From a virus (taxonomy: Duplodnaviria > Heunggongvirae > Uroviricota > Caudoviricetes): 35,827 bases of DNA. Positions 1,899 through 35,827 of this stretch are shown here, piece after piece. Made by a program: the position numbers and the translations under genes. Numbering within the stretch: the first letter of the stretch is position 1; each line of letters starts with the position of its first letter. Under the pieces are notes generated by a model. It ran no database searches. It worked only from the letters and a program-made list of their open reading frames with translations, and had not been told where the DNA came from. The stretch is from IMG/VR virus record IMGVR_UViG_2534681737_000011; one strand, written 5' to 3'.

Positions 1899-2338
1899 CT
1901 TGAATCCTCCTAAATCTGGATTAATGATTTCTTAAAAAAGAGCGTTAACCGCTCACTATTATTTATATGGGGATTGTATTTTATTTTTCAACCCCTCACA
2001 TTTATCTCTTATATATGTATTTATCACAGAGATATGTTAAAATGTTATTCAGATGTTATCAGACGTGTTAAATGTGTTAAACCACAGCACGAATTGCTAA
2101 AGCGAAGAACACGAATTAACCAAATTGATGTTTATGCAATCAATTTAGAAAATTGCATAGCACTTTTTGCTAAAGCGGTGAGTATTAATTGAGCTATGAA
2201 TTGTAAAGATTTGTTACAGGATTTCTCTCAGATCCAAGTCTTAACAGACATATAACAATTTAACAGAAAGATAACAAACGGAAGGAAAATCGGTAAATTT
2301 TCACTTTCAATACAAATATTATACCACATTTTTCTCCA

Positions 2339-2410
2339 ATTGTCAAGTGTAGCACCGATCCTACACAGTGTCAACAAAGGATTTTCAAACCTACACTAGC
2401 CCTACACTAT
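2339..2410. repeat. TGTCAA-flanked hairpin (GTGTAG/CTACAC) plus three CCTACAC repeats
   Basis: TGTCAA GTGTAG caccgatc CTACAC agTGTCAA arrangement, then CCTACAC at about 2360, 2390 and 2401; read directly from sequence. Confidence 0.6.
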
Positions 2411-2413
2411 GAA

Positions 2414-2654
2414 AATTGCCCATGAATTTTGCCCCTGAACCAAAATCCCCTAGATTTCACTATCCCATTTTTGCCCCTGAAACCTACTATTTTTGCCCCT
2501 GAAATTCTGGGAAACAGTGATTTTGCCCCTCATTTTTGCCCCTGAAATGCCAATAATTGCCCCTGAAAATCTAATTTTTGCCCCTGAAATTTGCCCCCGA
2601 AAAGGATTGGTGAGAAAAACTCTTTATAAAACATTAACTTAGTGAGGGGCAAAA
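2414..2654. repeat. iteron array: 13-bp direct repeat TTTTGCCCCTGAA (5 exact, 4 degenerate, 1 inverted copy)
   Basis: Exact copies at 2427-2439, 2468-2480, 2491-2503, 2534-2546, 2576-2588; degenerate copies at 2415-2426, 2521-2532, 2555-2567, 2590-2601; inverted copy TGAGGGGCAAAA at 2643-2654. Spacing is irregular (about 10-40 bp), so not CRISPR-like. Confidence 0.85.
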
Positions 2655-2742
2655 CGGGGAATCGGGCGTGCATAGATATTATATAACACATTCGCTACGC
2701 TCATGTGTAAAACCAAAAACAACAAATAACCAAAAAGATATT

Positions 2743-2762
2743 AGGAGGGCGTAGCCCGACTG
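2743..2762. repeat. 20-bp element AGGAGGGCGTAGCCCGACTG (copy 1 of 2)
   Basis: Near-identical to 3176-3195 (2 mismatches, both in the loop of a GGGC/GCCC mini-hairpin). Confidence 0.7.
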
Positions 2763-2780
2763 CGCGAAGCGCTAACCAAT

Positions 2781-3030
2781 TACTTCTAGTAACACTAATT
2801 TAAACTAGATGATACTAGATGGTCTTAGAAGGAATTAACTAGTTTGCTCGCTCGCTTCGCTCACTCTCAAACGTCTGCGACGCCACTGCGTGGCATCGAG
2901 AATCACTTTTGAAAGGATTTTCTTAGAAAGGGATTTTAAACTAGTTACTAACTGATTCTAGAAAGATAGTAATAATCACTTTGAAGATAATAGTAGTTAA
3001 CTGGTTACTAGATGATTCTAGATCACTTTA
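2781..3030. repeat. CTAG-rich block of short direct repeats
   Basis: Eight CTAG tetramers within about 250 bp; about 25-bp imperfect direct repeat TTAAaCTaGTTACTAacTGATTCTAGA (2937-2965 vs 2997-3026); ATCACTTT(T)GAA at 2901, 2974, 3021; TCTTAGAA(A)GG at 2823 and 2921; GC-rich island at about 2845-2900. Confidence 0.7.
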
Positions 3031-3052
3031 ATGATCATGAAAGGTATTGGTT

Positions 3053-3081
3053 ATCCCTTCGGGATTGCAACCTTCGGTTGC
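3053..3081 (+). other. two tandem UUCG-tetraloop hairpins
   Basis: ATCCC-ttcg-GGAT immediately followed by GCAACC-ttcg-GGTTGC; no adjacent T-run, so not a classical terminator. Confidence 0.55.
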
Positions 3082-3175
3082 TAAATTTCTTCCTGATTAT
3101 TATTTCTTCAAAAGAAAGATTCTTATATTCTAAAGATACTTCTTCGTTTTGATGATGTTTTAATCAAATCTATGA

Positions 3176-3195
3176 AGGAGGGCTTTGCCCGACTG
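3176..3195. repeat. 20-bp element AGGAGGGCTTTGCCCGACTG (copy 2 of 2)
   Basis: Matches 2743-2762; the two copies bracket the CTAG-rich block. Confidence 0.7.
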
Positions 3196-3286
3196 AATAC
3201 CAATCCCTTCCAAAATCATCAAGAATTTTCTCTTATAAATAATATCAGAATTACTTTGATTCACTTTCTTTTAGAGGATTTCCATT

Positions 3287-3754
3287 ATGAACCATAAACT
3301 GACTACCACTACTCCTTTTATCCTTCTGGGTCTGGATGCAGATAGCTTTCACAATGACAAGTTAATGAAGATGTTCCGTGAACGTGGTTATAACATCCTT
3401 TACAATACCGATGAATCCCATTTCTCTAGTGCATGGTATGTTTTCGGAAGAAATAAACGTCCTACCATCGTTGTTAACTGCTTCACCGATGAAGACCGCC
3501 TGAAATACCAGAACATTCCAGCAATCATTGTTCGTGATGACCTGCCTTTCGAAGTCCGTGATTATGACATTGATTTAGGTAGCTTCGTTACTGTCTATGA
3601 ACTGGATGAAGCCATGTTTAACTACGGCAAAGAACCCGCTCAGGAAGCCCCAGAACACGATGAAGAAGATGAGGAAGACGAAGAATACGCGCCAATCTGT
3701 TTCTCTTCTCACGGTGGCTTCTACGGTTACGATGAAGGCTTAGATATGCTGTAA
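3287..3754 (+). CDS. strongly acidic hypothetical protein
   Basis: 155-aa ORF with GAGGA ribosome-binding site; Asp/Glu-rich throughout with a poly-acidic tract (EHDEEDEEDEE) near the C-terminus. Confidence 0.6.
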   Translation: MNHKLTTTTPFILLGLDADSFHNDKLMKMFRERGYNILYNTDESHFSSAWYVFGRNKRPTIVVNCFTDEDRLKYQNIPAIIVRDDLPFEVRDYDIDLGSFVTVYELDEAMFNYGKEPAQEAPEHDEEDEEDEEYAPICFSSHGGFYGYDEGLDML

Positions 3755-5189: not shown

Positions 5190-5423
5190 TCAAAAACCTG
5201 TTGCTTCTACGATCTGACCATCACCGATCTGAACATAGAATTTAATGTCTAACTTCTTCATATTCTTATAGAATTGGGCGATTGAGATCCCATGTTCACT
5301 AAGAATCTGTTCTTTCGATTCCTTACCGCGATCCGCTGTATAGTAAGCGTAGGCAATATCAGCCATCTGTTCTTGAGTGAATCGGCAAGGGCGACCGCGA
5401 GTAGCTTTAGTAGTCATAGTCAT
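5190..5423 (-). CDS. small putative DNA-binding protein (GRP motif plus helix-turn-helix-like segment)
   Basis: N-terminal TRGRPCRFTQEQ followed by an HTH-like ILSEHGISIAQFYKNMKK; paralogous to 1716..1898. Start may be the second ATG at 5417, which has better GGAGA spacing. Confidence 0.55.
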   Translation of the reverse strand: MTMTTKATRGRPCRFTQEQMADIAYAYYTADRGKESKEQILSEHGISIAQFYKNMKKLDIKFYVQIGDGQIVEATGF

Positions 5424-5451: not shown

Positions 5452-6054
5452 TTATTTAGAGGACTTACATTTTATAGGAAAAAGTTCTCCATCGTCAACC
5501 GACATAAAGAACTCTGCTTTGATCCCGTACTGCCTCAAGCGTGAATAGTATGTACCTCGACTTATATCAACCTTGCGAAGCACTTCAAAGAACCCTTTAG
5601 GATCGTTGTAATAGTGGCTATATCGCACGTTAGCGAGTTCAACGAATAGTTCCCTTGTATCACCATATCCTTTCTTAAAAGCCTCGTTACGATAGCGTGT
5701 AACAGCGTGATTTAGCCTTTCATGCTTAAACACTTCCCTTAGTGGCTTCCATTGCAACCGATAGATCGGACCATCGTCGATTCTGTAAAACCGCTTAATG
5801 TCAAAATCAAACCAATCTCGGACTCTCCGAAACTCTGTATGTGATGTTCTATGCTTCTTAAAGAAGTTGTGAACGTCTGTATAACCATTATCACGGTAAA
5901 ATTCTATTAAAATCTCTTTCGCTTCCTCACGGCTAAAACCAGAAGTGGTTATATCTGTTTTTAAATGCTTATGCTTAACTGGTAAACGATATTCATGATC
6001 GGTACAAGACAAGGCTAATTCTAATTCATCTCTTTGTTGCTGATTAATTAGCAT
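5452..6054 (-). CDS. hypothetical protein with C-terminal HTH-like motif (ISRGTYYSRLRQYG)
   Basis: 200-aa ORF with AGGAGG ribosome-binding site (plus-strand CCTCCT at 6059-6064); the C-terminal motif resembles resolvase or homing-endonuclease type HTH; no catalytic motif recognised. Confidence 0.5.
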   Translation of the reverse strand: MLINQQQRDELELALSCTDHEYRLPVKHKHLKTDITTSGFSREEAKEILIEFYRDNGYTDVHNFFKKHRTSHTEFRRVRDWFDFDIKRFYRIDDGPIYRLQWKPLREVFKHERLNHAVTRYRNEAFKKGYGDTRELFVELANVRYSHYYNDPKGFFEVLRKVDISRGTYYSRLRQYGIKAEFFMSVDDGELFPIKCKSSK

Positions 6055-6141: not shown

Positions 6142-8049
6142 ATGAAACTGATTTCTAATAAGGCAAAATTAAAAAAGATTCTCAGAAATGCAGCCAAATA
6201 TATTACGCCACCTCCTAAACTCCTTCCGTCTGAATGGTGCGAAGCGAATATGGTGCTGGTAGATGGTCCTCAAGCGGGGGATAAAGTTAAATTGTTGTCA
6301 TTCCAAAAAGGCATGATTGATGCACCTTTCCTTGAGAACAAGAAAAAGTATGTCCTGATGACCAGTGCGCAGATCGGAAAAACTACCATCTTGAACGGCA
6401 TCCTGTTTAACCAGATGGCTAACGATCCATGCAATATGATTATCGGACAATCAACCGCTAAAGAAATGTCTCAATATCTCGCGGGTAAGATCCGACCGTC
6501 TATCGAAGCATGTGATGCATTAAAAGACGTGGTTACAGACAAGAATGATCGTAATGCGGTTAACAACAATAACCAACTCCAGCTAAAAACGAATCACTTC
6601 CTGTACATGGTATCGCTTACCAGTCCATCAACCCTACGTGGTAAGACCGCAAAGGTTGGATTGCTTGACGAAATCGATGCTGCTACAGCCTCAGAAGAAG
6701 GTGATCCGGTGGCACTGGCTGCTAACCGTTTAACTACTTTTGGAGATGAGGGTCGATTAGTCGTATCCAGTACCCCGACCAGTAAGCTGGGAAGCATTAA
6801 CCAGCAATGGTTATCAAGCGATATGCGTATGTTTTTTGTTCCGTGTCCTCATTGCGGTAGACACCAGGTGATCGAGTGGGAAAACGTTCAATTTGAATGG
6901 CGTAACATCGATGGTAAGAACTTACCCGATCCTGATACCGCTCGTTATATTTGCCCTCACTGTAAGCAATCATGGACAGAAGGGGAACGAATCAGGGCAG
7001 TAGCGCAAGGCGAGTGGAGAGCAACCCGTGAAAGTGAAGTAGCAGGATTCTGGATCAGTCGTCTATATTCACCTTTCAGCACGATCCGCGCTTGTGTGGT
7101 TGATTTTAGTCATGCGTGGCAATCCTTTGATTTACAATCATTTTATAACACCGTATTAGGTAAGGTGTACGACGATCAGGACACGGCAGTAGAAGCAAAT
7201 GAACTGGAACAACTCAAAACAGATGTTTCTATCGAGAATATCCCAGATGACGTGATTTTCTTGTGCTCAGGAATTGACCAACAATTAGACCGCGCAGAAT
7301 CTACCATCTTAGGCGTAGCGAAAGATAAGGTTTACATTCTGGATCACCGCAGCTTTTACGATCATAACTGTGAACGATATGAATCACCTGTTTGGGATCG
7401 TCTGGTTAACTTCAAGAAAACCAAATTCTATAACGTTAATGGTGAACGTGTGCCAATGCTCGCCAGTTTCCTTGATACATCGAACGGTCGATTCACTCAA
7501 GCCGGATACCGTATTTGCGGCAAGTGGAAGAACCTACACGCGATCAAAGGTAGTTCGTCTGGTAATGCTCCAGTGATTCCGGTTAAACCTACCCGCACAG
7601 GTGGTCATGAATTGCTTATGCTGGGTGTTAACGTTGGGAAATCCGCTGTTCGTGAAATGTTGGTTAGAAACCTGAAAGACAATCCTCACATCGGCTTAGA
7701 AATATCAGAAACCGTTCCTGATGATTATCTCGATCAGCTTTTGAGTGAATCCATCAAGCGTACTACTACTGGCGTGCGTTGGGTGAAAAATCCAGGTAGT
7801 ACCCGAAACGAGGCTCTCGACTGTCTGGTTTATAGCTATGCTGCTTCTCGCTACGTTCTTTCAAAAATGTCATGGGATAAACTCATTGCAATGAAAGACA
7901 GCTTAAACCGTGTTGTCGAAGAATCCGTAGAAGCTCCTAAAACGCAATCTGACGAGCAAATCGAAGAAACTAAGCCAATCACACGACCACAACGTCAAAA
8001 CATCGCCAGACGCCCAAATAGAGGCCGTAGCTGGGTAACATCGTTCTAA
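6142..8049 (+). CDS. terminase large subunit, lambda GpA-like
   Basis: Walker A (SAQIGKTT) and Walker B (VGLLDEID) motifs; C-terminal region with CPHCG ... CPHC metal-binding motifs typical of GpA-type terminases; lies directly upstream of the portal gene. Confidence 0.85.
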
Positions 8050-14001: not shown

Positions 14002-17000
14002 ATGGAGTCTATCCAATTTAAACGCACACAGACGGCTGGTAAAAAGCCAACGCCAGAACAACTGGCACAGGGTGAGGTAGCAATTAACCTTGCCGACCAC
14101 GTAATTTACACCAAAGACAAAAATAACGCAGTAGTTCAAATCAGCGTTTCCCCAGAAAGTCATAATGCTTTAAACACGAAAGTAGACAATAACAAGAAAA
14201 CTACTGATTCTACTATCGCGGCAAATAAAACCGAAGCTGCTAACGCTCTGGCTACCGCTAAATCTGAACTGAATAACACTATTAACACGAAAGATACAGC
14301 GACCAATAAGCGCATTGATGCTACTAACACCACTGTTAGTAACTTAACCCAGACAGTCACGGCAAATAAAACCGACGCTGACACCAAGATCAATAACCTT
14401 ACGGGGACAGTTGCGGCAAACAAATCAGCTATTGAAACTACCGTAGCGAATAACAAACGAGACGCGGACAATAAAATCTCAGCTTTAACCACTACGGTTA
14501 ATGACAACAACACCGCGATCAATAGCCGTGTTGATACCACTAACACCAATGTTAGCAATCTGACCAAAACCGTTACAGCTAACAAGTCTGATGCTGATTC
14601 CAAGATCTCCAGCTTAACGAGTACCGTTGCAGCTAACAAATCAGCCATTGAAACTACGGTAGCGAACAATAAACGCGATGCTGATACGAAGATCACCAAC
14701 TTAACCAACACTGTTAATAGCAACCATACCGCCATTAACAACAAGGTTGACCAGAATAAAACCAGCACAGATGCAGCGATTGCAGCCGCTAACAAGCGAA
14801 TTGATGGTATTGAAGGTAGCAACGATGCTCTTTACATCAAGAAGAACACAAATACCTATCATCACGGCTATCTGTTAACCAAAACAGCTAACTATTTTGA
14901 TGATGCTGGTGCTCGTAACCTTGATTATTTTGGTGCGTTTCGTCCGAACAATGCCGAAGGTTGGGGTAACTTAATCCTTAACATTCCTCATTCTGGCGGT
15001 AAAGCACACGGTCGCGGCTTTGAGTTCCATTATGGGTCTAGCTCATCTCAGGTTAAAACCTATGGCTTTGATAAGGACGGTAACAAGAGATTCAGCTATC
15101 GCATGTACCATGAAGGTGATAAGCCGACTCCTGATGAATTGGGTGTGTATAGTAAAGCCGAAGTTGATCAGATGTTCATCAAGAACGTTAGAATGACCGT
15201 TCCTTCTGGTGATGCTACTCGTGGATACTTCAAGATCGCAACCGCTACGATCCCACAGAATGGTCGAATGGTAATGCTTCGTATCTTCGGTGGTAATGGT
15301 TATAACGTTAACTCTTATGATCAGGTTGACTTTGTAGAAATTGTCATCCGTTCCGGTAACAATAACCCGAAAGGCGTTAGTATTGCTGCTTATCGTCGAA
15401 ATGCTCTGAACGTTCATCAAGTATTTGCGGTTAATACTTCCGGTGATAACTACGATATCTACGTTAACTACGGTCGTTACACCGATAACGTTATTGTCGA
15501 ATACGGTAAAACTGATGGCGTTACTCTGACAGTACATGATGTTCCTGAATTAACTCTCGTTAAACCTTCTGTTGGTGTTACCGATGCTCGTGTTATTACG
15601 ATGTTCAACACCGAAAACAAAGCCGGAACGTTGATGTTTGATAATAACGGTCAAGGAACGTATGATATTATCAGTCTGAATAACTCAACTGATACAAATA
15701 AAAAATATCTTCGTAAATTCCGTAGCAAATCAGCCGAAACAATTTGGCATGAAGTTGTTGAAGGTAGTGTCTATCGTTTAGCTACTGGTGTTACTGATAC
15801 AGCGGATCAATTAAAAATTGATTTTAATGGTGTTACTGTAAACCGCCTTTTTGTTAAGGGTAATAACGCTATTAGAATGGAACGCCGCGACGGGCAAAGT
15901 AACTATATCGAATTCTTTGATTATCGTTCTGGTGCTAATCGTCGTCAGGGTTATCTAGGTTATGGTGATGGTACTACTAACACTGTACAGTTAGTAAATG
16001 AATTAACGGAAGGTAATAACTCTGTAAGACTGGATGAGAACGGTCAAGTTTCATTATCCACTGGCAAAACAAAAATTGTGTACACAAACGGCGAATATGT
16101 TGCTGCATACGCTAACGCATTCCGTATGATTTACGGTAACTACGGTGCATTCTGGCGTAATGATGGTGGTAAAGTTTATCTTCTTTCAACTGCCGAAAAT
16201 GATAAATTTGGTGGCTGGAACGGCAACCGACCATTCATTTACGATTTGACTACTGGTAAAGTTACTTTAGGTGGTGATGGTAACGAGGGTGCATTAGTTC
16301 TCGAACGAGATAGCCGTGCTGCTCGATTTGCTGGTGATATTTACGTCGGTAAAGGAATGTTAACCTTTGATGCTGGTCGATTAAATTCTCGCGACTACTT
16401 CCGGTTTAACCATTGGGGCGATAGCAATAACGCTCGTGATAATATCTTACAGCTTGACGATAGCAAAGGTGCACACTTCACCACTGAACGTACTTTAGCA
16501 ACTGGTGCGATTAAAACTAAATTCTTCGGTGATTTAGAAGCTGCTGGACAAATTCGCTGGGGTAAAGGTACTGCAACTTCTACGTTTAATATTCGTGCAT
16601 GGGGCGCTGATGCTCGTAAACAAGTGTTTGAATGTGCTGATGAAAGCGGTTGGCACTGGTATACCCAACGTGCTGGCGGTCCTGGTACTGAATTAATCGA
16701 GTTTGCTATTAACGGTACTGTTAAGCCTAAAGCAATCCACACTGGAGGCAATATCACCCTGAATGGTGCTGATATTGAGTTTAAGCGCACTGGTAACAAG
16801 CATTTATGGTTTAGAGATCCAAACGGCTTAGAGTTGGGTCTGTTGTACTGCGATGATGCTGGTGTTATGCGTATGCGCGGTGAGAAACAAGCCGAAGTCT
16901 GGAAATTCGGCGGTAAGATGATTCACCTTGAAACGGGCACTGTATCCGGTGGCGGTAATGGTCTTATTCGTGGTAGCGTTGCTGGTGGTAGTTGGGCTAG

Positions 17001-17589
17001 CTGGCGTGATCGTGCTTCCGGTATTCAGGTCGACTGCCAGCAATCAACCGATTCCGCTCATAACATCTGGAAAGCAACCCATCAAGGTAAATATCATATC
17101 GCCGCAATGGGTGTACACGTTCCTAGCGGTACTATCGGTAACGCTCTTGTTCGTCTCCATGTTCATGATGCCGTCTTTGACTTTAACGCATCCGGTGACA
17201 TGACGGCAGGTCGTAACGGTAGCTTTAACGATGTTTACATTCGCTCTGACTCTCGTCTGAAAATTAACAAGGAAGAATTACAGGACGGTGCATTAGAGAA
17301 AGTAAACTCCCTGAAAGTATACACCTACGATAAAGTTAAATCTCTTTCTGATGACACGGTAATTAAACGCGAAGTAGGTATTATTGCTCAGGATCTGGAA
17401 AAAGTATTGCCGGAAGCAGTAGGTATTCAATCTACCGAAGATCCAGAACATCCAGAAGCAATCAAGACTATTTCTAACTCTGCTGTCAATGCTTTAATCA
17501 TCAAGGCTATGCAGGAAATGGATGCTAAGTATCAAGCTAAGATTGATGCACTGACTAAAGAATTAGCCGAACTCAAAGCAACTAAATAA
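14002..17589 (+). CDS. long tail fibre protein with C-terminal S74-type intramolecular chaperone domain
   Basis: 1195-aa ORF with GAGGTGA ribosome-binding site; N-terminal repetitive T/N/K/A-rich region with two tandem units of about 72 aa; C-terminal SDSRLK motif followed by a coiled-coil tail, as in self-cleaving fibre and tailspike chaperone domains. Confidence 0.8.
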   Translation: MESIQFKRTQTAGKKPTPEQLAQGEVAINLADHVIYTKDKNNAVVQISVSPESHNALNTKVDNNKKTTDSTIAANKTEAANALATAKSELNNTINTKDTATNKRIDATNTTVSNLTQTVTANKTDADTKINNLTGTVAANKSAIETTVANNKRDADNKISALTTTVNDNNTAINSRVDTTNTNVSNLTKTVTANKSDADSKISSLTSTVAANKSAIETTVANNKRDADTKITNLTNTVNSNHTAINNKVDQNKTSTDAAIAAANKRIDGIEGSNDALYIKKNTNTYHHGYLLTKTANYFDDAGARNLDYFGAFRPNNAEGWGNLILNIPHSGGKAHGRGFEFHYGSSSSQVKTYGFDKDGNKRFSYRMYHEGDKPTPDELGVYSKAEVDQMFIKNVRMTVPSGDATRGYFKIATATIPQNGRMVMLRIFGGNGYNVNSYDQVDFVEIVIRSGNNNPKGVSIAAYRRNALNVHQVFAVNTSGDNYDIYVNYGRYTDNVIVEYGKTDGVTLTVHDVPELTLVKPSVGVTDARVITMFNTENKAGTLMFDNNGQGTYDIISLNNSTDTNKKYLRKFRSKSAETIWHEVVEGSVYRLATGVTDTADQLKIDFNGVTVNRLFVKGNNAIRMERRDGQSNYIEFFDYRSGANRRQGYLGYGDGTTNTVQLVNELTEGNNSVRLDENGQVSLSTGKTKIVYTNGEYVAAYANAFRMIYGNYGAFWRNDGGKVYLLSTAENDKFGGWNGNRPFIYDLTTGKVTLGGDGNEGALVLERDSRAARFAGDIYVGKGMLTFDAGRLNSRDYFRFNHWGDSNNARDNILQLDDSKGAHFTTERTLATGAIKTKFFGDLEAAGQIRWGKGTATSTFNIRAWGADARKQVFECADESGWHWYTQRAGGPGTELIEFAINGTVKPKAIHTGGNITLNGADIEFKRTGNKHLWFRDPNGLELGLLYCDDAGVMRMRGEKQAEVWKFGGKMIHLETGTVSGGGNGLIRGSVAGGSWASWRDRASGIQVDCQQSTDSAHNIWKATHQGKYHIAAMGVHVPSGTIGNALVRLHVHDAVFDFNASGDMTAGRNGSFNDVYIRSDSRLKINKEELQDGALEKVNSLKVYTYDKVKSLSDDTVIKREVGIIAQDLEKVLPEAVGIQSTEDPEHPEAIKTISNSAVNALIIKAMQEMDAKYQAKIDALTKELAELKATK
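14320..14750 (+). repeat. two tandem copies of an about 216-bp coding repeat inside the tail fibre gene
   Basis: Protein units IDATNTTVSNLTQTVTANKTDADTKINNLTGTVAANKSAIETTVANNKRDADNKISALTTTVNDNNTAINSRVD and TTNTNVSNLTKTVTANKSDADSKISSLTSTVAANKSAIETTVANNKRDADTKITNLTNTVNSNHTAINNKVD; also visible at nucleotide level. Confidence 0.75.
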
Positions 17590-29427: not shown

Positions 29428-30927
29428 TTATATAGCAATTGTTTTAGTTGCATAGCTGAACTTGTCGGTTAGATAATAGCGGATTCTCTCAAGTGCATGT
29501 TTTACCGCATAATTTTTATGCTTGACTTTTCCGTTACGACCGAATATACACAGATGATCGATAAGATCCCAGACCGTTGCAATGTCTTTCGAACCATGTT
29601 TACGCAATGCACGACCGATACTCTGACGAACGATAGTTGATTCCTTCACTGGATGACCGAAAATAACATGGTGCAAATTCTTAATTGAAACACCAGTAGA
29701 GAACACACCATAGGATGCAACGCAAATGATCCCTGTTTCCCCTTCCGCTAATTTCTTAAATTCATCACGTTCTTCTGTCTTAACCCCACCGTCAATATAA
29801 TAAACCTTGTCGTGTACCTTCTGTAACGCATCATACATAAGTTTTCCGTGCTTAGTGTTGCGGAACATCAGGAATACGTTTTCGCCCTTCTTAGCGAGTT
29901 TTAGCGCCAAATTACAAGCAAACTTATTTCGTCGTGGATTAGACGTAATATACTTGATCTCTTCCGCATATTCTCGCCCCTTAACCGCGCTACATTCCTC
30001 ATCGGTATAACGAAGGAAAAGACAGTTAATTTTCAGTTTTGTCACCTGCCCTTCTTCCATCAGGCGGTCAATGCTAACGATCTTAGAAATATCACCGAAA
30101 AGCCCGACATACTGCATTAAATGGCACTTTGATTCTTTCGGGGAACCAGTCATACCGATTTTGAACTGGCAATGATTCATTCCGTTAATGATATTGGTAA
30201 TATTTTTGGCACTAGCCTTATGCGATTCATCAACTATCAACATTCCATATTGTCGGAACCATTCAGGAGGCATCTTGCAAGCTGATTGCCAGGTACTAAC
30301 CGTGATTAACCTGTCTCCCGGATGTTTCCCGCTACCACTCATCATTGTATGAATTGCTTCATAAGGGAATAGCCTATAATCGATGAAATCATCCCTCAGT
30401 TGAACCACTAGCGATGTAGTCGGAACAATGATTAGAACTTTTCCGGTGTAATGCTCTAAGTACCAACGAGACAGCATACAAGCAATCAATGACTTACCCG
30501 CACTGGTAGGAAGAACCAGCATTCTACGGCGATTATGGATACCCTGAAAGACTGCCTCCCTTTGATACCAATAAGGATTGATTTTATTGCTACCGGAATA
30601 CACTTCTAAGGAATCAATCCATTCATTAATCGCGTCTTTGGTTACATCTTCCTTATCAAGCAATCGCGGGTCAATCCAGACTGAATAGCCCATATTTTTA
30701 ACGAAGACACCCAATGTTTTTAATAGTCCAATTGGTAGGGTATTTTCATGCGTAAACAGTCTTATTCGTCCATCCCAGCCGGAATACTTGTAGCGGGGGC
30801 TAAACTTAGCCCCTTCAACCTCAAACGAGAAATAATCTCTTAATTCCATTCCGATAGAAGGAGAGCAATCAACCTTAACGAAACTGTAATCTTGAAAATG
30901 AATTTTAATATCTTGCATTAGTTCCAC
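29428..30927 (-). CDS. uvsW: ATP-dependent DNA helicase, UvsW-like (superfamily 2)
   Basis: Walker A (LPTSAGKS), DExH box (IVDESH) and C-terminal helicase motifs (VASYGVFSTGVSIKNLHHV); N-terminal region resembles the T4 UvsW N-domain as recalled from memory. Confidence 0.75.
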   Translation of the reverse strand: MELMQDIKIHFQDYSFVKVDCSPSIGMELRDYFSFEVEGAKFSPRYKYSGWDGRIRLFTHENTLPIGLLKTLGVFVKNMGYSVWIDPRLLDKEDVTKDAINEWIDSLEVYSGSNKINPYWYQREAVFQGIHNRRRMLVLPTSAGKSLIACMLSRWYLEHYTGKVLIIVPTTSLVVQLRDDFIDYRLFPYEAIHTMMSGSGKHPGDRLITVSTWQSACKMPPEWFRQYGMLIVDESHKASAKNITNIINGMNHCQFKIGMTGSPKESKCHLMQYVGLFGDISKIVSIDRLMEEGQVTKLKINCLFLRYTDEECSAVKGREYAEEIKYITSNPRRNKFACNLALKLAKKGENVFLMFRNTKHGKLMYDALQKVHDKVYYIDGGVKTEERDEFKKLAEGETGIICVASYGVFSTGVSIKNLHHVIFGHPVKESTIVRQSIGRALRKHGSKDIATVWDLIDHLCIFGRNGKVKHKNYAVKHALERIRYYLTDKFSYATKTIAI

Positions 30928-31487
30928 TCCACACTTGCAATATTCTTTATATTGTTTAGTGATTTATTGCAGTAGTGGAATGTTTCAGTTTTGCCGTATT
31001 CAATCCCGCCTATACCCACATCCAGTAATCTCTTTATTGCTCTTTCAGTGGCTAAAGCATGTTTCATTGATGGCATTTCACCAGCAAAGACAATATCAAA
31101 GTCATGACCGGGATTGCGTACACCTAGATTAATGCGTCGCTTGATGATTGACTTTGTAACACCAAATTTACCAATATCCCCTGATTTCATTACATAGAGA
31201 TAAGGCACACCCGCTTTATATTGAAAGTAATCACTTTTGAGACAAGCACAGCGTTTACCTTCATTAAGCAGGTTAGTAGCTGATTTGTCGGCTCTATTGC
31301 CACATCGGGTACATGTAAGAGCAATTCTTGAATGAAGCCCTTTAAACTCACCCAGAAAGCCATGAAAGACTAATGGTAAGTCCTTATCTTTGATGTGAGT
31401 CAGAATGCGTTGTTCTAATGCCGATGGAGTTACAGCACGGGAGGATTTAGGAGTAAAAACAATATCTTTAGCCATTACTGGAATCAT
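30918..31487 (-). CDS. zinc-finger / GIY-YIG-like (T5orf172-type) putative endonuclease
   Basis: GTGAGGT ribosome-binding site before the ATG at 31487; Cys-rich segment CTRCGNRADKSATNLLNEGKRCAC; C-terminal YLYVMKSGDIGKFGVTKSIIKRRINL fits the GIY ... YIG ... R pattern; 3-prime end overlaps the helicase gene by 10 nt. Confidence 0.55.
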   Translation of the reverse strand: MIPVMAKDIVFTPKSSRAVTPSALEQRILTHIKDKDLPLVFHGFLGEFKGLHSRIALTCTRCGNRADKSATNLLNEGKRCACLKSDYFQYKAGVPYLYVMKSGDIGKFGVTKSIIKRRINLGVRNPGHDFDIVFAGEMPSMKHALATERAIKRLLDVGIGGIEYGKTETFHYCNKSLNNIKNIASVEWN

Positions 31488-31529
31488 ATAGACCTCACTT
31501 TTTAACTTATAGGCATAACCTCAATATGG

Positions 31530-31558
31530 TTGGTTTGGGATTTAGGGTCGCGTATTAT
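31530..31558 (+). promoter_or_regulatory. candidate sigma70 promoter (-35 TTGGTT, 17-bp spacer, -10 TATTAT)
   Basis: Located in the 153-bp divergent intergenic region, about 80 bp upstream of the 31641 start. Confidence 0.4.
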
Positions 31559-31640
31559 ACACATCCAGATAGAGAATGCAATAGTAAGACAATTTTCTCT
31601 GATAAATAGTAGTGAACTTATTATTTTAGAGGAAACTACT

Positions 31641-32816
31641 ATGAAACTTGCTTACGCTGCCGAAATTCCTTTTGTTAAGAAAACTCGCGGTTTATCGCCG
31701 GAAGAGTACCAACAACGAATCATCGCTAAACTGGAACCTGCTTTCGTATTTGGTGGATTTATCCTACCGTGGAAGGGTAATCACACTTACTTTCGAATCT
31801 ACAATTTAGACACACAAGAATATAAGGACTACAAATTACGCAAACTGGAAGATACTAACGGGGGTGAGTTATTCCAGACTGAAAAGGCTGTATGGTTGAA
31901 AATGGAATCTCGTTGTAATGAGAAGGGAAAGAAATTCCTCGGATGGCAAGGAGAATGGAAAGGGCGAAATAGAACGAAAGCCCGTGTTTTGTGCCCTGAA
32001 CACAATCAAATCATGACGCCATCTCTATTACATGCTCTCAAAGATGATTTCGATTTTGATTGCAAAATCTGTATGGCTGAAAAATCCCAACGGGTAAGAA
32101 GTGGCAAGACTTTTGATGAAGTTATTAAGGACAAAGAGACAATCATCAATGCACGTTGCGAGAGTACGCCTTACACCTTCAAAGGATTCATCATAAACAC
32201 CCCACACCTAAAGGATGTTAAATTTAAAACCTATTGCAAGACACATAACCACGAATGGGAATCTCATTTAAGATGTGCTGATTCTTTCACTTGTCCGCTT
32301 TGCATTAAAGACCAACTGGTGCAACTGTCTAACCGGACTTATCAGGGTAAGGCTAGTTTCTACATTCAATTATTAGATGACAAATTTATTAAATTTGGAA
32401 TCACTACCCGGAAACCAGAAGAACGAATGAGAGAGCAAACCAGAAAGAGCAACTTCACTCACCGCTTAATCTTTACTCATGAGTTTGAGGATGGTTGGAA
32501 AGCCGTTGATTTAGAGCATGAAGTAAAACAACGCTTCAAGACTCATGCAGCACCCTACAAAGATTTCAAGGATGGATGGTCGGAAACTCTGACTATTGAT
32601 GAGTTGCCACACTTACAGCAACTGGTTTATGACTACCTAACCAATCAACCGGACGAGGCTAATATGTGGGTATCCCCGAAAGATGTATTTGATGACGATA
32701 CATTCAAGCTACATACTCACTTCTACGGCATCAATAAACCGGAATTTTTCTGTATTGATGACGACAGTCCTGATTTAATGGATGAATACTTTAATGCTCT
32801 CTTAGATGCTGCCTAG
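31641..32816 (+). CDS. zinc-finger / GIY-YIG-like (T5orf172-type) putative endonuclease, divergent paralog-like partner
   Basis: Start chosen at the ATG with AGAGGA ribosome-binding site (31627-31632) rather than the track start at 31530; repeated Cys/His modules (CPEHNQ ... CKICMAEK; CKTHNHEW ... CPLCIKDQ); C-terminal FYIQLLDDKFIKFGITTRKPEERMRE fits the GIY ... YIG ... R ... E pattern. Confidence 0.55.
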   Translation: MKLAYAAEIPFVKKTRGLSPEEYQQRIIAKLEPAFVFGGFILPWKGNHTYFRIYNLDTQEYKDYKLRKLEDTNGGELFQTEKAVWLKMESRCNEKGKKFLGWQGEWKGRNRTKARVLCPEHNQIMTPSLLHALKDDFDFDCKICMAEKSQRVRSGKTFDEVIKDKETIINARCESTPYTFKGFIINTPHLKDVKFKTYCKTHNHEWESHLRCADSFTCPLCIKDQLVQLSNRTYQGKASFYIQLLDDKFIKFGITTRKPEERMREQTRKSNFTHRLIFTHEFEDGWKAVDLEHEVKQRFKTHAAPYKDFKDGWSETLTIDELPHLQQLVYDYLTNQPDEANMWVSPKDVFDDDTFKLHTHFYGINKPEFFCIDDDSPDLMDEYFNALLDAA

Positions 32817-32828
32817 CGCAATTAAATT

Positions 32829-32853
32829 AAAAAGGGGTACAGATGTACCCCTT
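32829..32853. terminator. bidirectional terminator between convergent genes
   Basis: GGGGTAC-agat-GTACCCC hairpin with an A-run on the plus side (a U-run for the minus-strand recombinase transcript). Confidence 0.6.
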
Positions 32854-32889
32854 AAAGTGTTTAGCTCGTTATACGTCGATTTAGGCCGC

Positions 32890-34569
32890 TTAAATTCCAA
32901 ATTCCTGTAATGGACCTGGTATTTCTTCCTCTGGTTTCCAGTTCTTATCTGTCAGCATGTCTAAACATGGATGCAGAACAAGCCCGTTGCTTTCCAGAAT
33001 CTGCCTATCATTGATAGTTTTCAAATCGACAAAGATTTGTCCTTTCCTCGTTCCTCTTGAATTTTCTATTACAACTCTCTGGGTCTTTCCATCGATGTAT
33101 TCCAGTACAAACAAGTTTTTGTTTCTGTCAATCCTGCTACACCCGATCCGCTTTAGAGCTTGCTTAATCTTAAACCGGACCTTTAGTCGTTCCTCGTTGT
33201 AAACATCTTCTAAATCAAATTCTGCGAGCTTCTCCCAGCCTTGAGAGTCAACAGAATACATTTCCTCTTCTGCCATCTTGATCTGATTGTAGAGTGTTTC
33301 ACGCTCGCTATTGAGGGTAGTAATCTGATCGGCTAGCTCCTTCGTTGCTCCTGTCATAGCAGAAAGGGCAATCAGGTTATCAATCTTGCGTGATATTTCA
33401 TCAACCTGTACTTTCAACGCCGGAACCGGATTAGCCTTATCCTCAGCAATCCAGATTTTATCAGCCAGCAATTGCAATACAGCTTTCTCTAATTGATCAC
33501 CTCGAAAACTCCAGTTTGGATGCTCGCAATCAAGTCTACGTGAACGGGTCGCATCACATGTATAACGATACTGGTCAGAACGTTTGTTCGTTCCCTTCAC
33601 TTTAACCATAGCGCAACCGCAATGATCACATTTCAATAGGCCAATACCACTAAGCAGGGGGATCGGTTTAACTTCTTCCTTGTCTCCAAAGTTCCATGCT
33701 CTAGCACCAATATTTTTCTTAAGGTGATAGAACGTAGGGTCATCAATAACACGAGGGTAATAATCCTTTAACTCATAGTTAACGCCATCTACAGATATTT
33801 CCTTGATACCAATCAAAGCGCGGGTATGAAACAACCTTTCAACCATTGCCCGTGACCATTTTGAATGCTTCTTGTTGCTAACCGCTGGTGGCGGTGTATA
33901 AGTCTCGTTAAGGTGATCCAGTATCTCGGCGGTTGAACGTCCATTCTTCCGCAATTCCACAATCTCCTGAACAACAGGGAAGTATGTAGGATGAGGCAGC
34001 ACATAACCGGAAGTGGTATCCGTCCACCACATATTCTTTCCAACTTCCTCGATTGCCACTGCCGGATTCTGGGGATTTTCTTGATGGGCTTTAATCTTAA
34101 TCAGTGCGCTTGAGTTAGTACGATTGCGCTTAGTCTGGCTTTCCTCATTACCACGGATGAATAAAAGGATGGAGAACATCAGGTCCATCGGGTTAGCGGT
34201 AACAGTATCCAGCGAGTAGATCTTGTTATCCATGCCAGTAACAATGGTTATCCCCCTACGGATTATTGAAAGGAATAACTCCTGCGCACTGACAATATCG
34301 GCACGGGATAAACGGTCCAAGTTTTCGATGAATAGCCAGCTACCAACAGGAACGGATCTACCTATTGCATCAAGGAAACGAGATAGCGCCCCTGTTTTAG
34401 AGTTAGCACCTTTAAACGCAGATACACCCAGATCCTGATAATCATTTACCAGTTCTAAGTCATACTTTGCCGCAATCTCTCTCGCCATCCTGATTTGTCG
34501 TTCATAACTCGAACCATCACTCTGACGCATAGACGAGAAGCGAATATACGAATACAGTTTAGTTTTCAT
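32890..34569 (-). CDS. large serine recombinase (integrase or invertase family)
   Basis: N-terminal resolvase catalytic motif YSYIRFSSMRQ and DRLSR motif; large C-terminal extension with Cys cluster (CDHCGC ... C ... C) and coiled coil as in large serine recombinases. Start at ATG 34569; an upstream in-frame TTG at 34584 is the alternative. Confidence 0.8.
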   Translation of the reverse strand: MKTKLYSYIRFSSMRQSDGSSYERQIRMAREIAAKYDLELVNDYQDLGVSAFKGANSKTGALSRFLDAIGRSVPVGSWLFIENLDRLSRADIVSAQELFLSIIRRGITIVTGMDNKIYSLDTVTANPMDLMFSILLFIRGNEESQTKRNRTNSSALIKIKAHQENPQNPAVAIEEVGKNMWWTDTTSGYVLPHPTYFPVVQEIVELRKNGRSTAEILDHLNETYTPPPAVSNKKHSKWSRAMVERLFHTRALIGIKEISVDGVNYELKDYYPRVIDDPTFYHLKKNIGARAWNFGDKEEVKPIPLLSGIGLLKCDHCGCAMVKVKGTNKRSDQYRYTCDATRSRRLDCEHPNWSFRGDQLEKAVLQLLADKIWIAEDKANPVPALKVQVDEISRKIDNLIALSAMTGATKELADQITTLNSERETLYNQIKMAEEEMYSVDSQGWEKLAEFDLEDVYNEERLKVRFKIKQALKRIGCSRIDRNKNLFVLEYIDGKTQRVVIENSRGTRKGQIFVDLKTINDRQILESNGLVLHPCLDMLTDKNWKPEEEIPGPLQEFGI

Positions 34570-34588
34570 ACCATTTCCAAACAAAAAC

Positions 34589-34618
34589 GCCCCTACCGCG
34601 TATTATAACGATAGGGGC
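34589..34618 (-). terminator. hairpin plus U-run on the minus strand (terminator candidate, or part of a recombinase-adjacent site)
   Basis: GCCCCT ... AGGGGC arms around an 18-nt loop, preceded on the plus strand by ACAAAAAC; lies between the 34635 gene and the recombinase start. Confidence 0.4.
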
Positions 34619-34634
34619 ATTGGTTAGTAAGTCA

Positions 34635-34880
34635 TTAATATTTCTTTCCAGTTAGTTTTGCATCACGTTTATTAATATCCTCGATATGACTCCATACACA
34701 CGCAGTAATAAAGTCGTCATCGTCACCAACTCCGGCAACCTGTGCTAATTCAGTACACAGTTGATTTAAAGAAGGTGCAACGGCAGCACGTTTGACACTA
34801 TCACCCTGTACATATTGTTCGGCATTTGCAGCACCAACCAAACCCAGAGCAAGAACGATACCAGCGATAATCTTTTTCAT
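34635..34880 (-). CDS. small secreted or periplasmic protein (signal peptide, no lipobox)
   Basis: N-terminal MKKIIAGIVLALGLVGAANA-EQ looks like a signal peptide with an AxA cleavage site; acidic DDDD tract. Confidence 0.55.
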   Translation of the reverse strand: MKKIIAGIVLALGLVGAANAEQYVQGDSVKRAAVAPSLNQLCTELAQVAGVGDDDDFITACVWSHIEDINKRDAKLTGKKY

Positions 34881-34911
34881 AATTGAATTTCCTCTTGTTA
34901 TTAGAATTTAA

Positions 34912-35253
34912 TTAGTCTTTGAAGTCGATGGTCACGTTACCTTTAAGGGCAAGTTCCATTAAACAACTGCGCTCGTCCTTCATGCTCTTACACAATTTCA
35001 TCCCGTAAACAACGAGATTATCTTTCTCTTTCCAATATTTTTGTTTATCTGCATAAACCTCGCTATATTCACTGTCTTTGAGTGAGAGAGCATTTTCTAA
35101 CTGGCTAATCTCCTGATTCAGATCCTTAATCTCGGCCTTATTTGACCGGATAGTCTCTTGATGTTGAGTATCGGAATAGTCATACCCACAAACAAATCCA
35201 CCGATGCCACCAACACACACAGAAACAATAATTGCGTAGATAGTCTTTTTCAT
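34912..35253 (-). CDS. membrane-anchored coiled-coil protein
   Basis: N-terminal hydrophobic helix (IYAIIVSVCVGGIGGFVCG) followed by a heptad-like segment (EIKDLNQEISQLENALSLKD); the architecture resembles an inner-membrane spanin, but no lipoprotein partner is seen. Confidence 0.5.
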   Translation of the reverse strand: MKKTIYAIIVSVCVGGIGGFVCGYDYSDTQHQETIRSNKAEIKDLNQEISQLENALSLKDSEYSEVYADKQKYWKEKDNLVVYGMKLCKSMKDERSCLMELALKGNVTIDFKD

Positions 35254-35294
35254 AATTGAATCCTCTTTGAATGAATTACGATATATTTATATCG

Positions 35295-35420
35295 TTAAAA
35301 GTTGATGCTGATTACCAGACCAAACACAACCGCACCAATCAAATCAATCCAGTTAATACACAATCCGCTATATTCTTTCTTGAATGTCTTAGATGAAATG
35401 CCATCATGAAATTGTTTCAT
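35295..35420 (-). CDS. small membrane protein (41 aa); not in the ORF track
   Basis: Translation MKQFHDGISSKTFKKEYSGLCINWIDLIGAVVFGLVISINF; preceded by a GGGGTGAG ribosome-binding motif matching the motif used by other genes in this window. Confidence 0.4.
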   Translation of the reverse strand: MKQFHDGISSKTFKKEYSGLCINWIDLIGAVVFGLVISINF

Positions 35421-35423
35421 TGC

Positions 35424-35504
35424 TCACCCCATACTAACGACAATATAAGAAAGGCTGATCATAGTTGTGAGACTACCTCCCACGAATGAGATAAAAGCTA
35501 ACAT
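35424..35504 (-). CDS. very small hydrophobic peptide (26 aa); not in the ORF track
   Basis: Translation MLAFISFVGGSLTTMISLSYIVVSMG with GGAGA ribosome-binding site 8 nt upstream; stop overlaps the ribosome-binding site of the 41-aa ORF. Confidence 0.3.
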   Translation of the reverse strand: MLAFISFVGGSLTTMISLSYIVVSMG

Positions 35505-35521
35505 GTTTGATTCTCCAGTTT

Positions 35522-35548
35522 AAAAAGCGGTGGGAATTGCACCCACCA
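35522..35548 (-). terminator. rho-independent terminator for the 35558..35827 gene
   Basis: GGTGGG-aattgc-CCCACC hairpin (with flanking pairs) preceded on the plus strand by AAAAA, which is a U-run on the minus strand. Confidence 0.6.
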
Positions 35549-35557
35549 AATTAGAAA

Positions 35558-35827
35558 TTACTTCTTGCTAATAAACTCTTTGTAGATAAAATCTAAGACT
35601 TCCTTTAACTTCTTATCGGTGCCAATCATCGCCGGAAGTTCTTCTTTAATATCGCGAGGAAGATACACATTACCTTTCCAGAACAAGCAACCACATTGAG
35701 CAATCGAATAGCTGAACATCCATTCACAATCTTGTTCTATCTCCCAGAATCTAACCTGCTCATCTTCGAGTTGAAGTTCGATTCCACGGCGGCGAGCATA
35801 GTTATGGATTGCTTTGGTAATGTTCAT
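35558..35827 (-). CDS. hypothetical protein (start codon at the window edge)
   Basis: 89-aa ORF whose ATG coincides with the last bases of the window; upstream signals lie outside the window. Confidence 0.5.
   Translation of the reverse strand: MNITKAIHNYARRRGIELQLEDEQVRFWEIEQDCEWMFSYSIAQCGCLFWKGNVYLPRDIKEELPAMIGTDKKLKEVLDFIYKEFISKK

Follow-up and report, generated by a model that had tools for sequence, protein, structure and literature searches.

A large serine recombinase that is very probably the integrase of an enterobacterial prophage inserting into ycdX

Phage large serine integrases such as PhiC31 Int, Bxb1 gp35, TP901-1 Int, Listeria A118/LI Int, and SPbeta SprA share one domain order, in which a catalytic domain is followed by the alpha-E helix, a recombinase domain (RD), and a zinc ribbon into which a coiled coil is inserted. 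A 2-bp core and symmetric attP arms are typical of serine integrases, and their attP often sits directly upstream of the integrase gene. In the phage enzymes, the central dinucleotide is non-palindromic, the attP measures ~50 bp with imperfect inverted symmetry, and attB is located within a host gene, which integration disrupts, as in the case of SPbeta and spsM (PMC5499854). Hin, Gin, Pin, gamma-delta/Tn3 resolvase, and Sin have the same catalytic fold and residues as the recombinase described here, but a short C-terminal helix-turn-helix replaces the RD, zinc-ribbon, and coiled-coil parts; the sites of these enzymes lie on a single molecule, and accessory sites or proteins take part. The closest relatives in deposited phages are the YbcK-type proteins (DLP12 and lambdoid E. 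coli phages) and those of Burkholderia JC1, Bcep176, and Bcep22, at 28-31% identity over 80-94% of the length. YbcK genes reside in lambdoid phages that use their own tyrosine integrase, so YbcK is not the integrase there.

We analysed a 35,827-nucleotide stretch of viral DNA (IMG/VR record IMGVR_UViG_2534681737_000011), hereafter the window. A first-pass annotation had called a large serine recombinase (LSR) at positions 32890-34634. The call holds, as the catalytic, recombinase, zinc-ribbon, and coiled-coil parts are all present in a 559-aa product. The interval does contain the recombinase, but its end, 34634, is the base preceding the stop codon of the upstream gene and lies outside the recombinase. 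The gene and its parts are as follows.

32890..34569, minus strand: LSR gene, probable prophage integrase, 559 aa plus stop (ORF, Pfam, PHROG, AF2 model)
34192..34569, minus strand: catalytic (resolvase-type) domain, residues 1-126 (Pfam PF00239; invariant residues)
34534-34536, minus strand: predicted nucleophile S12, within the catalytic domain
33985..34191, minus strand: long alpha-E helix and linker, residues 127-195 (model helix 127-164; allele breakpoints)
33670..33984, minus strand: RD, residues 196-300 (Pfam PF07508 on residues 198-287)
33454..33669, minus strand: zinc-ribbon domain (ZD) before the coiled coil, residues 301-372 (Pfam PF13408, residues 310-368)
33250..33453, minus strand: coiled-coil motif, residues 373-440, with helices 382-406 and 410-436 (AF2 secondary structure)
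32893..33249, minus strand: C-terminal part, residues 441-559 (AF2 model; without a Pfam match)

The minus-strand ORF (32890..34584) would encode 564 aa if started at TTG. The ATG at 34569, which yields the 559-aa product, is the PGAP start in six related genomes, and all homologues begin there. The sequence YIRFSSMRQ occupies residues 8-16 (nt 34522-34548) and DRLSR residues 85-89 (nt 34303-34317). Across 20 homologues, down to 29% identity, R10, S12, Q16, D85, R86, and R89 are invariant, as are the zinc cysteines C314, C317, C338, and C348; the catalytic serine and arginines are those conserved in the phage large serine integrases. Searched with the whole protein, Pfam returned Recombinase (PF07508) at 1.2e-08, above the Pfam cut-off, and Zn_ribbon_recom (PF13408) at 1.1e-10. 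Resolvase (PF00239) was absent from that result at E<=0.01 and scored 9.8e-15 when residues 1-150 were used alone. PHROG 95 'integrase' matched at 9e-63.

Using the AF2 model as a Foldseek query, the top matches were the full-length serine integrases 9dxf, 9iu2 (Bxb1), 9tep (PhiC31), and 4kis (LI integrase), with E values of 2e-17 to 4e-9 over 350-650 aligned columns and sequence identities of 13-18%. As a single sequence, the recombinase had no phmmer match among solved structures; a family profile was needed, and it reaches PhiC31 integrase at 4e-11. The helical hairpin of the predicted coiled coil (382-406/410-436) has a block-mean pLDDT of about 80-90. Unlike the phage large serine integrases, the model carries an extra C-terminal alpha/beta domain at ~460-540, predicted to comprise a helix (460-471) and four strands (472-479, 484-491, 496-502, and 512-515). 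Similarity to XisF is weak (1.3e-13 over residues 140-459). The NCBI models for XisF and CcrB score 50.7 and 15.9 bits, far under their equivalog cut-offs of 375 and 900, so the recombinase belongs to neither group.

Between integrase, invertase or resolvase, and remnant, the options left by the first-pass annotation, integrase proved the right choice. The recombinase is very probably the integrase with which a temperate, siphovirus-like enterobacterial prophage inserts into ycdX; we infer its catalysis, directionality, and regulation. The gene set had been described as lytic-looking, a view that does not survive comparison with bacterial genomes, since dozens of complete E. coli genomes contain this sequence as an integrated prophage. 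Integrated copies with flanking host DNA, the check proposed in the first pass, were found: prophages ~98% identical to the window split ycdX in E. coli chromosomes. Among 5426 complete E. coli genomes, 58 have the 4.3-kb right end of the window on their chromosome; no plasmid has it, and megablast of positions 31500-35827 against plasmids gave no relative. PSJ-22 (98.6% identity) has its ycdX, located between ghrA and ycdY, interrupted by an element of 36.9 kb, and the intact ycdX of K-12 (MG1655) represents the empty site. The attR junction was found in at least 25 genomes and attL in at least 27. Salmonella (71-76% identity) and Edwardsiella (60%) orthologues sit at the same ycdX position and codon.

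The window itself is a provirus cut at gene boundaries, its right end falling on the ATG of the last gene (89 aa). It contains neither junction, and its own insertion site is therefore deduced from near-identical prophages and from its RD+ZD allele. Its IMG/VR relatives are proviruses likewise trimmed at gene boundaries and so hold no junction. One metagenome contig among them is an exception, carrying a hicB junction. Megablast of the recombinase region and of window positions 1-25000 against deposited phages found no close relative, the sole match being a tail-fibre gene at 80% to RB49-like phages.

The junctions allowed attP to be reconstructed as 26+2+26 bp, GTTATTGTGGGTACATGATATTAGGG-AA-CCCGAACGTAGTCAACCCCCAATAAC. 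The attB lies within ycdX at codon Asn134 and reads ...CATCCCGGA-AA-TCCCAAATATG..., with the core context CCGGA-AA-TCCC. Integrated copies read ...CCGGA-AA-CCCGAACG at attL and ...TTAGG(G/C)-AA-TCCCAAAT at attR, and the predicted read-through of the attP junction is ...GGGTACATGATATTAGG[G/C]AACCCGAACGTAGTCAACC.... When attL, attR, and the empty K-12 site were compared, identity was limited to AA, with mismatches on both sides, which confines the crossover to a 2-bp core. The attP arms match as an inverted repeat at 18 of 26 positions (binomial tail 2.6e-6), and in 11 genomes the attL similarity ends exactly 26 bp beyond AA. Core, attP symmetry, and a disrupted host gene are thus as in the phage large serine integrases. 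Unlike in those systems, the host is enterobacterial and a variable cargo block intervenes between attP and the gene: the attP core lies ~1.3 kb from the recombinase start codon rather than adjoining the gene, and its centre is placed 43-44 bp beyond the right end of the window, joined to DNA ~935 bp left of position 1. Viral contigs contained 0 exact matches to a 29-mer spanning the core of the excised attP, which is not evidence of inactivity. Two 19-mer matches in metagenome contigs were rejected as excised attP; they lie within an unrelated gene and are chance matches to a pattern that is too short.

Three further features concern the flanks of the gene.

34586..34621, minus strand: predicted intrinsic terminator of the upstream gene 34635-34880, a G+C-rich hairpin with a T-run to ~34576 (terminator scan, RNA fold)
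32832..32853, no strand assigned: hairpin terminator between the convergent recombinase gene (stop 32890) and a GIY-YIG gene (stop 32816) (terminator scan)
34635..35827, minus strand: variable block of small genes, from the recombinase to the prophage end (ORFs, PHROGs)

An imperfect inverted repeat at 34589-34618 had been proposed earlier as a terminator or part of an attP-like site. The repeat exists, slightly wider than described (34586-34621); 7 of its 14 pairs are G-C, the loop has 8 nt, and there is a T-run on the minus strand. Its RNA fold reaches -23.7 kcal/mol (z = -3.5), and 0 of 200 shuffles fold as well. Being directly upstream of the gene and an imperfect palindrome, it has the position and form that might be expected if it were, or overlapped, the recombinase's attachment site. 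For the integration site that reading is refuted by the junctions: the repeat is internal and uninterrupted in every lysogen examined, at least 1.25 kb from the host junction, has no similarity to the reconstructed attP or attB, and takes a conserved intrinsic-terminator form (G+C-rich stem, T-run) on the strand of the upstream gene. The junction sequences place the actual attP core outside the window, and of the two proposals only the terminator stands. The hairpin, its loop TATAAT, and the T-run are kept in E. coli and Salmonella relatives, and the upstream flanks diverge. As judged from sequence, the predicted terminator would end transcription of the cargo genes upstream and shield the integrase gene from it. 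Tentatively, the TATAAT of the loop may also act as the -10 box of an integrase promoter. The second hairpin (32832..32853) has 9 pairs, a loop of 4, and a T-run; an Rfam search of the window matched no family.

Within the window, the cargo block encodes proteins of 81 aa (with a signal-peptide-like N-terminus), 113 aa, and 89 aa (PHROG 6147). Its content varies among prophages with the same junction, being either 2-5 genes or an IS911, and one junction is common to six genomes despite different cargo genes. The 89-aa gene adjoining attP was considered as a directionality factor and set aside, as it is absent at that position in hicB-type prophages; no directionality factor was found.

Natural variation in the recombinase offers a view of how the target is chosen. 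All four combinations of catalytic allele and RD+ZD allele occur, and one RD+ZD allele is found with ycdX and the other with hicB, whatever the catalytic-domain or C-terminal allele; roughly 15 loci were examined for this rule. Between the ycdX and hicB types, there are 18 substitutions in RD, 13 in ZD, and 2 differences in the coiled coil, and the RD+ZD module comprises 31 differing residues from position 196 to 351. In mosaics, the allele switch falls between residue 140 and 176-199, within the alpha-E helix/linker. These patterns point to target choice being set by the recombinase and zinc-ribbon domains, not by the catalytic domain. Geometry, outer arms, and AA core of the attP scaffold hardly differ between the two types. 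We consider it reasonably probable that this reflects a natural 'cassette' form of retargeting, in which the catalytic, RD+ZD, and C-terminal modules recombine separately and exchange of RD+ZD alone shifts the target between ycdX and hicB. If true, redirecting an integrase native to E. coli to another target would take no more than a small, defined set of substitutions. The natural mosaics constitute a ready domain-swap series, useful for work on integrase specificity.

The dependence of the insertion site on the allele of the DNA-binding domains also bears on whether this recombinase is the enzyme responsible. It might instead be an accessory protein, as YbcK appears in its own phages, or an invertase or resolvase acting on internal sites, with something else integrating at ycdX. 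In favour of an accessory role are the presence of YbcK-type genes (31% identity) among the closest deposited-phage relatives and the 1.3 kb between gene and junction; PHROG 125 'DNA invertase', a weak second match (2.4e-11), would suit an invertase. Besides the allele dependence, the 2-bp core and symmetric attP fit serine and not tyrosine chemistry, and in Edwardsiella, where the block is absent, 228 bp separate the gene and the ycdX fragment. Neither attP arm has a copy within the window at up to 3 mismatches, which argues against internal inversion or resolution at sites of this kind, although unrelated sites may exist. Unlike YbcK, the recombinase is the only one annotated in its element, near the element's end: the PSJ-22 annotation shows no further integrase, recombinase, or transposase from attL to attR, a statement that draws mainly on PGAP, supplemented by scans of some of the ORFs with Pfam, PHROG, and NCBIfam. 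We regard an accessory, invertase, or resolvase role as very unlikely and retain the recombinase as the integrase.

The gene could also have lost its activity, as a remnant within a defective prophage passed on solely by vertical inheritance. No free phage (the phage collection holds no isolate of this lineage) and no excised junction was found, and IS911 sits directly upstream of the gene in one genome. The first-pass remark that no repressor is obvious also holds: Pfam, PHROGs, and NCBIfam recognised no CI/Cro-type repressor, and among the early-region proteins they returned only a Rha-family regulator. Against decay, the ORF is intact with all catalytic and zinc-binding residues conserved, its 90%-identity cluster has 975 member sequences with orthologues across four genera, and the set of structural and lysis genes appears complete. 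Unrelated strains, which come from several continents and from humans, pigs, a dog, a cat, and cheese, share identical junctions but carry different cargo. BS74R-D and UTME-9 are double lysogens with one prophage each at ycdX and hicB, and variants of the protein show reassortment of its catalytic, DNA-binding, and C-terminal segments. We consider an inactive remnant extremely unlikely.

By reference to the established serine-integrase pathway, integration at ycdX would proceed as follows. Recombinase dimers would bind the ~54-bp attP and the attB inside ycdX, and two dimers would synapse via their coiled-coil motifs. At the central AA, Ser12 is predicted to make 2-bp staggered cuts in all four strands, after which half of the complex would turn 180 degrees and the ends would be rejoined, with orientation fixed by the non-palindromic AA. 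Insertion would truncate YcdX after residue 134. Precise excision would restore YcdX and should require a phage-encoded directionality factor.

A literature search returned no paper linking ycdX with a phage integration site. The tested recombinases tabulated by Durrant et al. 2022 (PMC10083194) include neither this protein nor these sites; the protein-site pair may appear in the large prediction table of the same study. A lead on hicB in the LF82 paper was dropped, as it concerns plasmid-borne HicAB. Phages of Streptomyces, Mycobacterium, Lactococcus, Listeria, and Bacillus are the sources of the characterised serine integrases matched in this analysis. For a serine integrase native to E. coli, the present locus offers a full att pair open to testing, consisting of a 54-bp attP, the ycdX attB, and an AA core. 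Lysogeny inactivates ycdX or, in the sister type, truncates the HicB antitoxin, and may affect host phenotype. The window thus represents a temperate prophage lineage without a deposited phage isolate, present in ~1% of complete E. coli genomes and found also in Salmonella, E. fergusonii, and Edwardsiella. In E. fergusonii, a more divergent RD+ZD module accompanies a third site, located in a cytosine/purine permease gene.

The window encodes an intact large serine recombinase, as indicated by its domains, its invariant residues, its modeled fold, and its structural and profile matches to serine integrases. The reading frame is called at 32890..34584 on the minus strand. Its start codon is likely the ATG at 34569, giving a product of 559 residues, since this start was chosen by PGAP in six related genomes and the N-terminal sequence MKTKLYSY opens every homologue. 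The motifs quoted in the first-pass annotation were found at residues 8-16 (YIRFSSMRQ) and 85-89 (DRLSR). A whole-protein Pfam scan returned the Recombinase and Zn_ribbon_recom domains, the Resolvase catalytic domain was detected (9.8e-15) when residues 1-150 were scanned separately, and PHROG 95, "integrase", matched at 9e-63. Across 20 aligned homologues, extending to 29% identity, R10, S12, Q16, D85, R86 and R89 are invariant, as are the four cysteines C314, C317, C338 and C348. AlphaFold2 modeled the following architecture with a mean pLDDT of 80.

Domains of the recombinase in the AlphaFold2 model
Residues 1-126: catalytic domain
Residues 127-164: long alpha-E helix
Residues 196-292: recombinase domain (RD)
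Residues 312-356: zinc-ribbon strands (ZD, zinc-ribbon domain)
Residues 382-436: two-helix coiled coil
Residues ~460-540: additional alpha/beta domain

The best solved-structure matches of this model are full-length serine integrases (9dxf, Bxb1 9iu2, PhiC31 9tep and the Listeria integrase 4kis). A family profile reached PhiC31 integrase at 4e-11, and a single-sequence search of solved structures returned no match.

By Pfam and PHROGs, the window carries genes for a Rha-type regulator, large terminase, portal, fused protease-capsid protein, tape measure, tail tip or fibre proteins, M15 peptidase, UvsW-like helicase, two CapR/GIY-YIG-type proteins, the recombinase and a few small proteins. This set had been described as lytic-looking, a description contradicted by a near-identical element (98.6% identity) in strain PSJ-22, which is a chromosomal prophage of 36.9 kb that interrupts ycdX between ghrA and ycdY. 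The proposed search for integrated copies with host flanks was thus borne out, and the right-hand 4.3 kb of the window is chromosomal in 58 of 5426 complete E. coli genomes. No close relatives were found among deposited phages or plasmids, and the capsid protein is at most 45% identical to that of any deposited phage. The start codon of the last phage gene coincides exactly with the right end of the window, and position 1 comes just past the stop codon of a gene whose 188-aa product matches the PHROG 57 small-terminase family (1.8e-16). Trimming of this kind is also seen in the related IMG/VR proviruses. The window is thus a provirus cut at gene boundaries with both junctions just outside; its own insertion site we infer. 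The small-terminase gene (L002 13965-14531 in a comparison locus) is the first gene after attL, with ~6 kb between it and the gene for the large terminase (window 6142-8049).

The attachment sites were defined by comparing both PSJ-22 junctions with the intact ycdX of K-12.

Attachment sites at ycdX
attB (intact K-12 ycdX): ...CATCCCGGA-AA-TCCCAAATATG...
attL (PSJ-22 junction): ...CATCCCGGA-AA-CCCGAACGTAGTC...
attR (PSJ-22 junction): ...GATATTAGG(G/C)-AA-TCCCAAATATG...

At the crossover, the phage and bacterial sites share two A's only, with mismatches on either side, and the register is fixed by the three A's counted in attL. The attR sequence is identical in six genomes with differing cargo genes (alignment A1). 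The reconstructed attP reads GTTATTGTGGGTACATGATATTAGGG-AA-CCCGAACGTAGTCAACCCCCAATAAC (26+2+26 bp); its arms match as an inverted repeat at 18 of 26 positions (binomial tail 2.6e-6), and attL similarity ends exactly 26 bp past the AA in 11 genomes. Such a non-palindromic 2-bp core, centred in an imperfect palindrome of ~50 bp, is the known hallmark of serine integrases. Tyrosine integrases work in another way. The attP centre projects 43-44 bp past position 35827, joined to DNA ~935 bp left of position 1, and neither arm was found inside the window at up to 3 mismatches. The ycdX attR junction occurs in at least 25 complete genomes and attL in 27; searches found no excised attP in public contigs and, among deposited phages, no isolate of the lineage. 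The same ycdX position, at AA|T of the Asn codon, is occupied by orthologues from Salmonella (71-76% identity) and Edwardsiella (60%). The Edwardsiella recombinase starts 228 bp away from the annotated ycdX fragment and no gene is called in that interval, so the small genes separating the recombinase from the ycdX junction in E. coli look like later insertions.

Apart from this recombinase, the annotation between attL and attR contains no integrase, recombinase or transposase. Sister prophages in E. coli (loci L006, L007, L012, L026, L047 and L048) interrupt the antitoxin gene hicB where it codes for the helix-turn-helix, so that hicA is retained along with the first 312 nt of hicB; there, attP and attB have a common stretch of 12 bp (GGCAAACCTAAA), as against 2 bp. 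The recombinases of the hicB prophages share 87-94% identity with that of the window, and their attP is homologous to the window type, keeping its 26+2+26 layout and central AA. The two reference types, ycdX and hicB, differ at 72 residues, which are grouped in blocks.

Differences between the ycdX and hicB reference recombinases
Residues 15-176, catalytic domain and alpha-E helix: 32 differences
Residues 195-351, RD+ZD: 32 differences, 31 of them within 196-351
Residues 389-511, coiled coil and C-terminus: 8 differences

Block combinations and insertion sites (Y, window allele; H, allele of the hicB reference)
Catalytic Y, RD+ZD Y: ycdX (window type, six genomes)
Catalytic H, RD+ZD Y-like: ycdX (P0015 / L050)
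Catalytic Y, RD+ZD H: hicB (L026, P0010 / L047)
Catalytic H, RD+ZD H: hicB (L006, L007, P0018 / L048)

Every combination of the catalytic and RD+ZD alleles is found, and the insertion site tracks the RD+ZD block alone. Two strains hold one prophage at each of the two sites, and an E. fergusonii variant with a far more divergent RD+ZD lies in a cytosine/purine permease gene with a ...TTAGGC-AA junction (one junction read). These natural mosaics provide the strongest argument, from sequence comparison, that the recombinase acts as the integrase, as a site that follows the DNA-binding domains is expected if the protein itself integrates. The integrase finding itself is ordinary; a natural module exchange that would retarget integration is what merits follow-up.

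Given the observed architecture, conserved residues, junctions, core, symmetry and allele-site link, the reaction would follow the established serine-integrase pathway. Dimers would bind attP and attB and synapse via their coiled coils, Ser12 would attack each of the four strands, staggered by 2 bp at the AA, and the subunits would rotate 180 degrees before the ends rejoin. In the integrated state, as read from attL, YcdX is truncated after residue 134 and followed by seven phage-encoded residues; precise excision would restore ycdX and is expected to require a phage-encoded directionality factor. Pfam, PHROGs and NCBIfam scans covering the early-region proteins recognised neither such a factor nor a CI-type repressor.

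The inverted repeat upstream of the recombinase (34589-34618) had been read as either a terminator or part of an attP-like site. It is an intrinsic terminator: on the minus strand, a 14-pair hairpin (34621..34586; -23.7 kcal/mol as RNA, z = -3.5) is followed by GTTTTTGTTT, 13 nt past the stop codon of an 81-aa gene and 16 nt ahead of the recombinase ATG. The hairpin, the TATAAT in its loop and the T-run are kept in relatives from both E. coli and Salmonella, whereas the sequence upstream of them diverges; the att-site reading falls because attP lies outside the window. As the gap from terminator to ATG is too short for a promoter, the recombinase may have a promoter whose -10 box is the TATAAT of the loop, with TTACTA (E. 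coli) or TTCACC (Salmonella) 17 nt upstream. In strain RMDEC332 (L007 5677-6845), IS911 lies directly upstream of the recombinase, replacing the 5' half of the hairpin and cargo genes.

All sequence and structural criteria tested place the protein in the large serine recombinase family, yet characterised members are only 13-18% identical to it in structural alignments. The nearest deposited-phage genes reach ~30% identity, and against the NCBIfam models of XisF and CcrB the protein scores below the cut-offs. In the literature searched, we found no paper naming ycdX as a phage attachment site. The recombinase is absent among those tested by Durrant et al. 2022, and the protein/site pair may be predicted in that study's large prediction table.

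Several other features of the window were recorded. A 1.4-kb stretch between divergent gene sets (1901-3291), without an annotated gene in a related prophage, holds repeats at 2414-2660 and 2803-3023: at least seven direct copies of TTTTTGCCCCTGAAA (spacing 13, 21, 22, 42 or 43 nt), two inverted copies and three copies of ACTAGATGATnCTAGA. The repeats look like an iteron or operator array, making the stretch a candidate replication origin or immunity region; an Rfam scan of the window returned no family match. Three minus-strand genes (1716-1898, 5190-5423 and 5452-6054) encode proteins of 60, 77 and 200 aa that matched no known family and have a common C-terminal motif resembling a helix-turn-helix, "..(S/T)..FY+..KK..IK", present twice in the 200-aa protein. 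They may be regulators of this prophage, in which no CI/Cro pair is recognisable. At 662-1603, ORFs of 313 aa (minus) and 311 aa (plus) overlap almost fully; PGAP annotates the minus-strand one only, whose product has an acidic, coiled-coil-rich C-terminal half and no family match.

At 29428-30927 (loci L043-L046) lies the UvsW-like helicase gene, with Pfam UvsW_N in orthologues and an adjoining UvsY gene in Salmonella relatives. These are recombination proteins of the T4 type, found in a temperate element of 37 kb in which no replication initiator or primase is recognisable. Between helicase and recombinase (30918-32816; loci L009 and L010) are two CapR-homology genes, one also with a GIY-YIG/T5orf172-type nuclease domain. 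This block is missing in strain CFSAN061761 and has other genes in its place in FXCREC043, a variability that suggests mobile nuclease or cargo genes. At the DNA level, deposited phages match the window in the 1195-aa tail-fibre gene (14002-17589) and nowhere else; across 2.5 kb this gene is ~80% identical to gp37, the distal long tail-fibre gene of RB49-like (Krischvirus) phages, which are lytic, T4-like myophages. This similarity points to a receptor-binding module that was exchanged recently between T4-like phages and a temperate prophage.
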